DNA of 40,202 bases from a virus: the UHGV virus genome UHGV-0358046. One strand, 5' to 3'. This document shows positions 33,001-36,000 of the stretch, one piece after another. Made by a program: the position numbers. Numbering within the stretch: position 1 is the first letter of the stretch; each line of letters starts with the position of its first letter.

Positions 33001-36000
33001 GGTCAGTTCCGCCGCCGCGCCCGATACGTCATGCCCGTCTTCCTGTAACTGGTTCAGCAAATTCATCAGCAGTGAGTTCTCCGTCAGGCCGAGAACACCA
33101 GACGGCGAGTGAATCAAACTGCGGTAGCCGGGCTTCAGCGGGGCGCTGTAGGTTTTGTTCTCTATCTTCATCGCCTGCATTACTGCTGACGCCGTGGCGT
33201 TGGCTACCTGGTCGGCAACCATCTTTATGCGTTCTTCCTGCGGGAGCGAGTTTTTAATGTAACTTCCGGTGCGGCGGATCTGAGGAAGAACCTCACCTGT
33301 AACCCATTCAAGAAATCTGAATGCTCTCGTTCCCTCAGTCATTGCCTCTTTGCAACGCAGAATAAGGATGTAGAGACCTGATTCTGAAACGATGGATAGT
33401 TCTTGTATTCCACCAGGGGTCTGTATTGAATACAGCCCCTTTTTGTTCCAGCCTTTTTTATCAAGTTTTCTCGCTTGTGTAACATCAATATTCAAAGCAT
33501 TGCACACATCTTTGGTGACAAACCAAGGTTCTCCGTCAATCATGAACATACGGATCTGGCAGGATGACTCAAAGGAAAAGATGGAAGGTTTGGTATTCAT
33601 AGCGATCACCTTTGTAGTTAGGTTAATCACCACCACTGAGACCAATCAGATGGTGGTGAACTGTGCAGAGTTGGTCTTACCGGCTACAAAGGAACCCGGC
33701 GCACCTTTCGGTGCCCCCACACAGCCCACCATAGAATAGGTGCGCTTTACACATAAAAAAACCGCTTATGCGGCATATGTGCCTCTGTAGTAATCCGGGA
33801 GACCAATCCCGGCACTGGATTTTGCCAGTGCCCGATTACTATGGCACAAGAGGAGTGCGATGTAAATTTACCGCAAAGGTAAATATAAGCACTCCATTTG
33901 GTAATTGCAAACCTTATCTGGTTTGTTTTCGTAATTGTTCGGCACAATAGTCGAGATGTGTTTGCAGATCCTGCATAGACATCTGTGAGCTGGTGACGTA
34001 GTTAATCAGTGCAGTCAGTTCGGCAAGTGGGCCATCGACATTAAATCCATCCTTATCGAGATCCCGGAGTAATTTCATCAAGTGCGATCCCTCCACCAGT
34101 GACCTGACGCCTCCCGGCGTGTGAATCCTTTCGGTAAATCCGTCTTCCAGTGGATAGTGATACTGCTGCATCTTATCTTCTCCATGCAATAACTGTATGT
34201 TTATACAGTAACAAATAATTTGTTTGCTATCCAGCACGTTTTGCAAATTACCCGAAAGGTAATATCTATTGGTATTTATAGTCTTTTTATCCATATATGG
34301 TTTTTCAGGTAATAGAATAACCAGATATGCGGCGCAACGGGTGCTGCGACTATCTGGAGATTTAACATGACGGTCTCAACCGAAGTTGACCACAACGAAT
34401 ACACCGGTAACGGCGTTACGACATCGTTTCCGTATACTTTTCGAATTTTCAGAAAATCAGACCTGGTTGTTCAGGTGTCTGACCTGAACGGGAACGTAAC
34501 AGAATTGGTCCTGGATACCGGTTATACGGTAACTGGGGCGGGCACTTATAGTGGCGGTTCTGTGGTTCTTCCGTCTCCGCTTGCTACTGGATGGCGAATT
34601 ACGATAGATCGTGTGCTTGATGTAGTGCAGGACACAGACCTTCGCAATCAGGGAAAATTTTTCCCCGAAGTGCATGAAGATGCCTTTGACTACCTGACGA
34701 TGCTGATCCAGCAATGTTTTGGGTGGTTCAGACGTGCATTGATGAAACCATCTTTGCTTGCAAAATATTACGATGCAAAGCAAAACAAAATTTCTAACCT
34801 TGCAGATCCATCATTTGAGCAGGACGCTGTAAATAATCGCTCAATGCGTAATTATGTCGATGCTGCAATCGCCGGAGTTGTTGGTGGTTTTGGTTGGTTT
34901 ATTCAGTATGGTTCTGGGGCTGTGTACCGAACGTTCCAGGATAAAATGCGTGATGCTATTAGCCCCAAAGATTTTGGAGCTGTTGGTGATGGTATAAATG
35001 ACGATTCCACTGCAATAAGCGCGTGCCTTGAAGCCTCATCTCCAGGTTATAAAATTGACGGATTAGGGCTTACTTTTAAAGTATCAACTCTTCCGGATGT
35101 CAGTCGATTTAAAAATGCTCGTTTTTTATTTGAGAGAATACCGGGCCAGCCTCTTTTTTATGCTTCTGAAGATTTTATCCAGGGAGAGTTATTTAAAATT
35201 ACAGATACACCGTGGTACAACGCCTGGACGCAGGATAAAACGTTTGTATATGACAATGTCATCTATGCGCCTTTTATGGCTGGAGACCGCCATGGTGTAA
35301 ATAACCTCCATGTTGCATGGGTTCGCTCAGGAGATGACGGGAAGACCTGGACAACGCCGGAATGGCTTACAGATTTACATGAAAACTATCCCACAGTTAA
35401 CTATCACTGCATGAGTATGGGGGTTGTCAGAAATCGCCTTTTTGCTGTAATTGAGACGCGGACCGTGAGAGGAAATAAACTGCAGGTTGCAGAGTTGTGG
35501 GATCGCCCAATGAGTCGCAGCCTTCGCGTTTATGGTGGTATAACGAAAGCAGCAAATCAGCAAGTCGCTTATATTCGCATTACTGATCACGGATTATTTG
35601 CTGGTGATTTTGTCAACTTCTCAAACTCTGGTGTTACAGGTGTTACCGGGAATATGACGGTGACTACTGTTATTGATAAAAATACCTTTACAGTTACGAC
35701 GCAAAATACCCAGGATGTGGATCAGAATAACGAGGGTAGATACTGGAGTTTTGGCACATCATTTCACTCGTCACCATGGAGAAAAACCAGTCTTGGAACT
35801 ATTCCTTCTTTTGTTGACGGAAGCACTCCTGTTACTGAGATTCACAGTTTTGCGACGATTAGCGATAACAGTTTTGCTGTTGGCTACCATAATGGTGATA
35901 TTGGTCCACGCGAGCTTGGGATACTCTATTTCTCTGATGCTTTCGGTTCTCCTGGTAGCTTTGTTCGCAGACGCATACCTGTAGAATATGAGGCGAATGC

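Follow-up and report, generated by a model that had tools for sequence, protein, structure and literature searches.

In the immI region of phages P1 and P7 (c4-icd-ant; RF01695, clan CL00128), antirepressor expression is controlled by C4, a 77-nt RNA that is processed by RNase P and whose b′ segment occludes a ribosome-binding site (PMC5320573, PMC12197685). The annotated P1 region runs from the C1 operator through two promoters, the sites a1 and b1 and the 77-nt C4 to a second pair of sites, of which a2 begins 3 nt past the 3′ end of C4 and b2 precedes the icd start by about 10 nt. APSE phages carry c4 and isrK beside a Bro-N gene, with matching a′/b′ sites (PMC7313666), and in the isrK-orf45-anrP region of Salmonella Gifsy-1 over-expressed IsrK pairs with the segment that the authors call orf45 and thereby increases translation of the antirepressor downstream about 140-fold (PMC4825925). 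A third RNA family, sRNA-Xcc1 (RF02221), was first described in Xanthomonas integron cassettes. Its literature presents it as a virulence-linked trans-acting RNA, and regulation of antirepressors was not found there in a search that did not cover the founding paper. Here, we analyzed an inverted repeat built on TCACCA/TGGTGA that stands just upstream of two antirepressor genes, ant1 and ant2, in the virus genome UHGV-0358046 (40,202 nucleotides; this whole stretch is referred to as the window). The analysis makes it highly probable that each gene ends a self-contained antisense-RNA immunity module of the P1 immI type, with a C4-family RNA upstream of ant2 and an sRNA-Xcc1-family RNA upstream of ant1.

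The window belongs to an epsilon15/phiV10-like temperate podophage of the genus Uetakevirus, an integrating phage in contrast to the plasmid prophage P1, and its best DNA matches are phages HEMP4, EC.W1-9, ZX5, phiV10 and TL-2011b, of which HEMP4 and EC.W1-9 are near-identical to it. The design is of a known regulatory kind, P1-type C4 control, found here in a phiV10-like phage, and the ant2 module resembles P1/P7 immI element by element on one strand. This arrangement would explain how such a temperate phage silences two antirepressors, with two RNA specificities layered atop a protein repressor, and the layering is relevant to prophage induction and to cross-talk among prophages residing in one host. 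Two leads would be new: a tail hairpin with an alternative pairing partner, and the view that IsrK, C4 and sRNA-Xcc1 belong, as components or variants, to a single phage immunity module of wide occurrence.

A probable antisense RNA and its target sites upstream of ant2

We scanned the window against Rfam and obtained three full-length matches above the gathering threshold, all on the coding strand of the antirepressor genes (Table 1). Two of them, to isrK and C4, lie upstream of ant2. The predicted C4 RNA has a 16-bp closing stem, a b′ loop, CCUUUGUAG (33692-33684), in its second hairpin, a single-stranded a′ segment, AGACCAA (33677-33671), and a 3′ tail, ACCA (33654-33651). Its 5′ end, G33730, follows UAU at the counterpart of the RNase P site in P1, so that UAU adjoins GGUGGG. 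P1 C4 shares the long closing stem, the pair of hairpins and the single-stranded a′, and its 5′ site likewise joins UAU to GG. The closing stem together with ACCA resembles a tRNA acceptor end, which fits the processing of P1 C4 by RNase P (PMC5320573, PMC11143913). With the UAU-GGUGGG junction, the acceptor-like stem and the ACCA tail all present, C4 would be excised by RNase P here as well, and its exact 3′ end is predicted on the same analogy. At the predicted RNase P site a conserved AUG begins a frame of 28 codons, which runs through C4 (33646-33732, minus strand) and ends before ant2. Public records place coding sequences named "hypothetical protein", "immunity region" or "transcriptional regulator" over IsrK/C4 RNA genes; examples in related loci are L002 1023-1220, L006 1039-1326, L007 845-1094 and L009/L010 525-1361. 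Coding sequences called across these leaders are probably, at least in part, mis-called open reading frames, the genes there being RNA genes instead.

Both target sites of the predicted C4 lie on the same transcript. Site a2, UUGGUCU (33645-33639), is complementary to a′ and sits in the loop of the hairpin formed by the inverted repeat, and b2 forms a duplex of −13.8 kcal/mol with the b′ loop over the ribosome-binding site of ant2. Duplex energies were calculated at the level of loops alone, since RNAduplex runs of whole RNAs against whole leaders ignore intramolecular structure. The target of each module is a gene of an antirepressor family, and the relatives' genes in the position homologous to ant2 carry an anti-repressor annotation.

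On the coding strand, the ant2 hairpin reads UCACCACCA (33659-33651), a bulged U, CUGA, the loop UUGGUC, UCAG and UGGUGGUGA (33635-33627). Its folding energy is −19.9 kcal/mol (z = −3.3 relative to dinucleotide shuffles), and its stems measure 9 + 4 bp; a first-pass annotation of the window had located this inverted repeat correctly and given it 8-bp stems. The same annotation had taken the repeat for a free-standing stem-loop of the leader. Instead, its loop holds a2 and its 5′ arm is the 3′ end of C4, with UCACCACCA comprising the last five bases of the closing stem (UCACC) and the ACCA tail. Because the 5′ arm is the C4 3′ end and the 3′ arm closes the a2 hairpin, the TCACCA/TGGTGA repeat serves as two things at once. 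In P1, too, the hairpin around a2 is made with the C4 3′ end, from unrelated arms (CCUGCCAC/GUAGCAGG). The repeat does stand just upstream of the ribosome-binding site, as first described, but the element that covers this site is the separate b2, which had been missed. In a fold of the 141-nt precursor the C4 closing stem forms, leaving a short a2 hairpin only.

The second of two promoter-like sites has its predicted start at about 33831, on the first base of the IsrK model match. Within this IsrK-family RNA, a hairpin loop carries a1, UUGGUCU (33806-33800), and is accompanied by b1, CUACAGAGG (33790-33782), which pairs with C4 b′ including one G·U pair; a terminator scan located an intrinsic terminator at 33774-33761 plus T7. 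The upstream promoter-like site is overlapped by one of 14 TTACC-N5-GGTAA operators in the window (136-34262; 0.66 expected), at which a repressor would be predicted to bind. Compared with P1, the a′/b′ specificity is different, an intrinsic terminator separates a1/b1 from C4, and the antirepressor is a Bro-N protein rather than Ant1/2.

The same leader invites comparison with Gifsy-1. The IsrK model matches in full here, terminator included, upstream of an antirepressor gene, and read-through into the antirepressor is the published behavior of the Salmonella locus. Hfq binding and trans-activation of antirepressor translation by IsrK were observed in Salmonella experiments (PMC4825925). In the published model orf45 is coding, its translation is coupled to that of anrP and C4 is not mentioned, whereas the equivalent segment here is a C4 gene with the 28-codon ATG frame. 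The authors also noted that orf45's nucleotide sequence is conserved and its amino-acid sequence is not (PMC4825925). To judge from the architecture of 12 other phage loci, Gifsy-1 itself lying outside our scan, Gifsy-1 orf45 may be a C4 gene and IsrK its a1/b1 decoy.

By analogy with these systems, transcription of the ant2 module would begin at the promoter pair, one member of which is overlapped by the prophage operator, and its first product would be an IsrK-like segment that bears the decoy sites a1 and b1 and stops at a leaky terminator. Read-through past the terminator would yield C4, which RNase P would cut at its 5′ end between UAU and GG and whose 3′ end would, as in P1, be trimmed to the tRNA-like ACCA. 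In mature C4, a′ (AGACCAA) would pair with a2 (UUGGUCU) in the hairpin loop of the remaining leader, displayed there by closure of the hairpin with the second repeat arm, and the b′ loop CCUUUGUAG would pair with b2 CUACAAAGG on the Shine-Dalgarno sequence and block ant2 translation. The short RNA bearing a1 and b1 could compete for C4. A like arrangement is envisaged for the ant1 module, with an sRNA-Xcc1-family RNA carrying other a′/b′ sequences. As these sequences differ between the modules, the two antirepressors would be held by two largely separate RNA specificities.

Covariation of RNAs, targets and hairpins in related phages

The 40 nt before the two ATGs align with a score of 7.5, compared with −4.1 ± 2.9 in shuffles, none of which (0/1000) reached that value, in agreement with the leader homology proposed in the first-pass annotation. 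That annotation had also named a lack of conservation in related phages as grounds for abandoning a regulatory role. The ant2-type leader matched 225 phage records and the ant1-type leader 105. Among the related phage loci scanned, isrK was followed by C4 in 12/12, and every IsrK match had a C4 behind it. DNA homology with phiV10, ZX5, TL-2011b and others begins precisely at the ant2 start codon (window 33597, query position 198) and covers the leader, and the antirepressor coding sequence differs among these phages. The change from a homologous leader to differing coding sequences marks a joint of mosaic type, with the RNA module on one side and its cargo gene on the other.

We probed IMG/VR with the C4 5′ end only, to avoid a bias towards the hairpin. 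The 108 distinct related loci represented 52 (a′, b′) classes, comprising 44 distinct b′ loops and 19 distinct a′ sequences. Site a2 was a perfect 7-nt complement of a′ in 47 of the 52 classes, placed 8-13 nt past the closing stem, and b2 was usually a 6-10-nt complement of b′ on the Shine-Dalgarno sequence, 34-44 nt past the closing stem; most classes also had copies of a1 and b1 at about −80 and −64. The longest complement of b averaged 7.65 nt for cognate and 4.29 nt for non-cognate combinations, and that of a averaged 6.75 and 3.58 nt. RNAs and targets that co-vary in this way are the pattern expected of antisense specificities diversifying together, of which P1/P7 is the classical case.

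The a2 hairpin itself was predicted in 66 of 67 distinct related segments. We counted covariation over the 9 + 4 bp structure in an alignment of 57 sequences (A1). Paired cells made up 85.6% of the total, 9/13 pairs were altered on both sides, and doubly changed cells numbered 90, compared with 33 in shuffles. The covariation score was 0.329 against 0.146 for shuffled alignments (0/500 reached it) and fell to ≤0.122 when the 3′ partner was slid. Outer-stem variants included CCGCCACC/GGUGGCGG, CCAUCACC/GGUGAUGG, CCACCGC/GCGGUGG and CCGCCGC/GCGGCGG, and inner-stem variants CUGA/UCAG, GAAA/UUUC, GCGA/UCGC and AAG/CUU. The G·U pairs occur in one strand orientation only, which speaks for a structure formed by RNA and against a palindrome in the DNA. 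This evidence bears on the second control layer that the first-pass annotation had suggested for the repeat: a layer distinct from the TTACC-N5-GGTAA operator, based on RNA and with the region as an antisense target, is what the data favor, and the alternative of a small repressor is disfavored by the G·U covariation.

The sRNA-Xcc1-type leader of ant1

The third Rfam match covers the full sRNA-Xcc1 model upstream of ant1, whose ATG lies at 2125-2123 and not, as first given, at 2126 (that of ant2 is at 33600-33598). The RNA has the topology of C4, with a closing stem, GGUCGGGUG/CACCCGAUC, two hairpins, a single-stranded segment and an RCCA tail, here ACCA (2174-2171). Its b′ loop, CUUUGAAG (2202-2195), is complementary to CUUCAAAG, which extends into the ant1 Shine-Dalgarno sequence, and this b′-b2 duplex is worth −12.0 kcal/mol. 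The 15-nt target ACUAAAACUUCAAAG (2148-2134) has an upstream copy, ACUAGAACUUCAAAG (2341-2327). A terminator-like hairpin with a T run, recognized by eye at about 2292-2319 because its 11-nt loop is beyond the limits of the scan, follows this copy. The a′ segment, UCUAGUUGA (2192-2184), contains the TTGACA that had first been read as a −35-like hexamer on the plus strand. The hexamer lies on the minus strand (2187-2182), inside the small-RNA gene, and was rejected as a −35: no acceptable −10 is found at 16-18 nt, the promoter scan did not report it and it is part of the conserved a′. None of the 14 TTACC-N5-GGTAA operators in the window lies near the promoter-like site of the ant1 module, so this module may rely on RNA alone.

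As in the ant2 leader, the 5′ arm of the ant1 tail hairpin consists of the closing-stem end plus ACCA. RNAfold extends the hairpin to 10 bp (−13.8 kcal/mol, z = −5.9), and both hairpins lie where they were first placed and exceed what chance would give. Stems of this type covary in relatives (ACCGCCAG/CUGGCGGU, CAACCAG/CUGGUUG, UCACCAU/AUGGUGA, GCCAC/GUGGC), and concerted changes of the loop, the a′ segment and both target copies were seen in 933W, 75/02 Stx, POCJ13 and VHML, along with covariation of the tail-hairpin stems. In IMG/VR, probed with the RNA core, a hairpin at the start of the tail was present in 66/87 distinct sequences, against a mean of 34 and a maximum of 45 with shuffled tails, and the outer helices took 43 different forms. 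The position of a2 differs among Xcc1-type relatives: some have a copy clearly in the loop (e.g. CUCAAAA, CUGAAAA) and others do not. For ant1, a placement of a2 in the hairpin loop was tried and set aside, a′ pairing with the loop at only −6.4 kcal/mol with two wobbles, and the assignment stays ambiguous.

More than 100 Stx and related phages carry the ant1-type leader at 88-100% identity. In 933W-type Stx phages this RNA stands before ant, and in Stx phage F039 it bears the annotation sRNA-Xcc1. In E. coli EDL933, the sRNA-Xcc1 of the 933W prophage shows abundant expression and low ribosome coverage (PMC5331693). In contrast to the integron cassettes of its first description, the family is represented here by a C4-like RNA in a phage antirepressor leader with a1b1 and a2b2 copies, and >100 phage records show it in the same context. 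RF02221 has no Rfam clan despite an architecture and a layout of target copies like those of C4. Three separately curated RNA families, C4, IsrK and sRNA-Xcc1, thus share one modular design before antirepressor genes in hundreds of phages.

The two modules have the Shine-Dalgarno-proximal CAAAGG of b2 in common (2134-2142 and 33609-33617). A cross-duplex of the ant2-module b′ (33684-33692) with the ant1 b2 reaches −10.5 kcal/mol, compared with −12.0 kcal/mol for the cognate b′ (2195-2202), and on these sequences some cross-talk between the two RNAs is possible.

Competing explanations for the repeat

Silencing of an antirepressor through RNA is also a property of P22 immI (mnt, arc, ant, sar), a secondary immunity region to which the first-pass annotation had compared the two leaders. 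There, the antirepressor is silenced partly by sar, a cis-antisense RNA from the opposite strand across the ant start, together with the protein repressors Mnt and Arc. None of these was found here: sar gave no match, no RNA family matched the plus strand of either leader even at permissive E-values, and the promoter scan detected no plus-strand promoter-like site in either. The complementary partner is instead encoded upstream on the same strand, on the same transcript, acts in trans by analogy and covaries with its target, an arrangement that fits P1/P7 immI (C4) and leaves P22-type control the least probable of the explanations considered. Scarcely more credit is due to the idea that the repeat is a DNA operator at which a small Mnt/Arc-like phage repressor shuts off antirepressor transcription. 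A near-perfect palindrome close to a gene start would suit this idea, and a separate operator family does exist elsewhere in the genome. However, the arms lie within a transcribed RNA gene and its leader, well downstream of the promoters, and do not form a sequence-conserved DNA palindrome at a promoter; the stem sequence changes freely with pairing kept, including G·U pairs, which a palindrome in DNA would hold as mismatches; neither spacing nor loop length is constant; and the loop follows the a′ sequence of the RNA, not a protein. It is about equally improbable that the hairpins, stable GC-rich stems just upstream of both genes, act as intrinsic terminators or attenuators that halt transcription before ant, since neither is followed by a T run or called by the terminator scan, and the terminator that the ant2 module does possess is farther upstream, at 33774-33761.

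A further possibility, compatible with antisense control of the P1 type, is that the hairpin is mainly a processing or conformational element whose arm GGUGGUGA pairs either with the C4 3′ end or with the bases before the AUG. Pairing with the C4 3′ end would sequester ACCA in the precursor, pairing before the AUG would close the ribosome-binding region, and on this reading the excision of C4 and the state of the translation start of ant would be coupled. The minimum free energy fold of the 141-nt precursor joins the 3′ arm GGUGGUGAUUA to UGAUCGCUA, just ahead of the AUG, and CCU to the AGG of the Shine-Dalgarno sequence, leaving b2 in the loop. This hairpin recurs in most C4-type classes (mean z = −2.1, 64 sequences), and the median duplex of arm and pre-AUG bases is −8.5 kcal/mol, compared with −4.45 kcal/mol when the pre-AUG bases are those of 28 other window genes (Mann-Whitney p = 6.6e-7). 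Moreover, C4-type and Xcc1-type leaders share a hairpin that begins exactly at the RCC(A/C) tail whatever its loop contains, and covariation reaches into the 5 nt common to the closing stem (columns 3, 5 and 6). Against this, the register and length of the helix vary, precluding column-by-column covariation, and the 37 pre-AUG sequences are phylogenetically related, which makes their complementarity to the arm suggestive only. Leaders of the ant1 type show the arm covarying with the tail and the pre-AUG bases constant, so a switch is unsupported there; a pairing of UGGUGAU with GUCAUCA was considered for ant1 and is not claimed, relatives changing the arm and not the pre-AUG bases. We regard this explanation as less likely than not. 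No description of an arm switch was found in a literature search that did not include the primary P1 papers. In its fullest form, the arm GGUGGUGA may act as a three-way switch that hides ACCA before processing and then closes the ribosome-binding region in a form presenting b2 to C4 in a loop. If true, the translational state of the antirepressor mRNA would be linked to antisense-RNA maturation. Joined to IsrK as the a1/b1 decoy for C4 in Gifsy-1, the switch makes a joint reading that we offer tentatively. The conserved tail hairpin and its alternative partner constitute a hypothesis, testable by mutation, that links antisense RNA processing to target accessibility.

Several points weigh against modules of the P1 immI type and temper our preference for them. 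In P1, icd lies between c4 and ant, and C4 acts on icd translation, with Rho-dependent polarity on ant. The ant2 module has no icd and its b2 lies directly on the ant2 Shine-Dalgarno sequence, so control would be direct and the downstream step would differ from that in P1. The RF03163 c4-a1b1 model scored 39.9 bits at 33792-33844, under its gathering threshold of 46.7, although the duplicate targets a1 and b1 are present and the overlapping isrK model is above threshold. Five nucleotides of the C4 closing stem also belong to the outer stem of the ant2 hairpin, which covaries nonetheless; display of a2 does not explain this overlap. Related sequences share ancestry, and the covariation statistics therefore overstate the number of independent events. 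In the ant1 module, a′ pairs weakly with the a2 copy beside b2 (−4.5 kcal/mol), and a2 is not clearly in a loop. Finally, everything functional proposed for this phage, translational repression and decoy action by a1/b1 included, draws on analogy with the described systems.

Table 1. Positions of the predicted elements of the two antirepressor modules in the window
Feature	Position	Strand	Basis or remark
Upstream promoter-like site, ant2 operon (TTGCAA-17-TATATT)	33882..33910	minus	promoter scan; position fits the two-promoter layout of P1 c4
TTACC-N5-GGTAA operator	33868..33882	not assigned	overlaps −10 and start region of upstream promoter
Second promoter-like site, ant2 operon (TTTACA-17-TG-CATAGT)	33838..33866	minus	promoter scan
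IsrK-family RNA, a1/b1 decoy-site region	33755..33831	minus	Rfam RF01394, 74.7 bits (gathering 50), full-length
C4 antisense RNA match	33649-33736	minus	Rfam RF01695, 78.6 bits (gathering 45), model positions 1-87 of 87
Predicted mature C4 antisense RNA	33651..33730	minus	ends inferred by alignment to annotated P1 C4
a2-display hairpin (inverted repeat)	33627..33659	minus	predicted fold; covariation in relatives
Alternative hairpin	33598..33635	minus	minimum free energy fold of 141-nt precursor
b2 target CUACAAAGG	33609..33617	minus	perfect complement of C4 b′ loop; overlaps ant2 Shine-Dalgarno AAGGUGAU (33612-33605)
ant2	32908..33600	minus	Bro-N domain antirepressor-type gene, Pfam PF02498, 1.8e-13
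ant1-module promoter-like site (TTGACA-18-CATACT)	2348..2377	minus	promoter scan
a1b1-like site ACUAGAACUUCAAAG	2327..2341	minus	at predicted transcript 5′ end; 14/15 positions equal to downstream a2b2 site
sRNA-Xcc1-family RNA, C4-like architecture	2171..2256	minus	Rfam RF02221, 62.9 bits (gathering 53), full model, match 2167-2256
ant1 tail hairpin: AUCACCAG (2177-2170), loop CUACUAA, CUGGUGAU (2162-2155)	2155..2177	minus	predicted fold
a2b2 target AACUAAAACUUCAAAGG	2134..2150	minus	overlaps ant1 Shine-Dalgarno (GGAGG, 2135-2131)
ant1	1475..2125	minus	AntA/AntB-family antirepressor gene, Pfam PF08346, 8.2e-28

On its upstream side, the ant1 module adjoins a gene for an MT-A70 family DNA methyltransferase (2695-3357, minus strand). 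The phage genome also contains a tRNA-Arg gene (anticodon UCU) at 15169-15245 on the minus strand.

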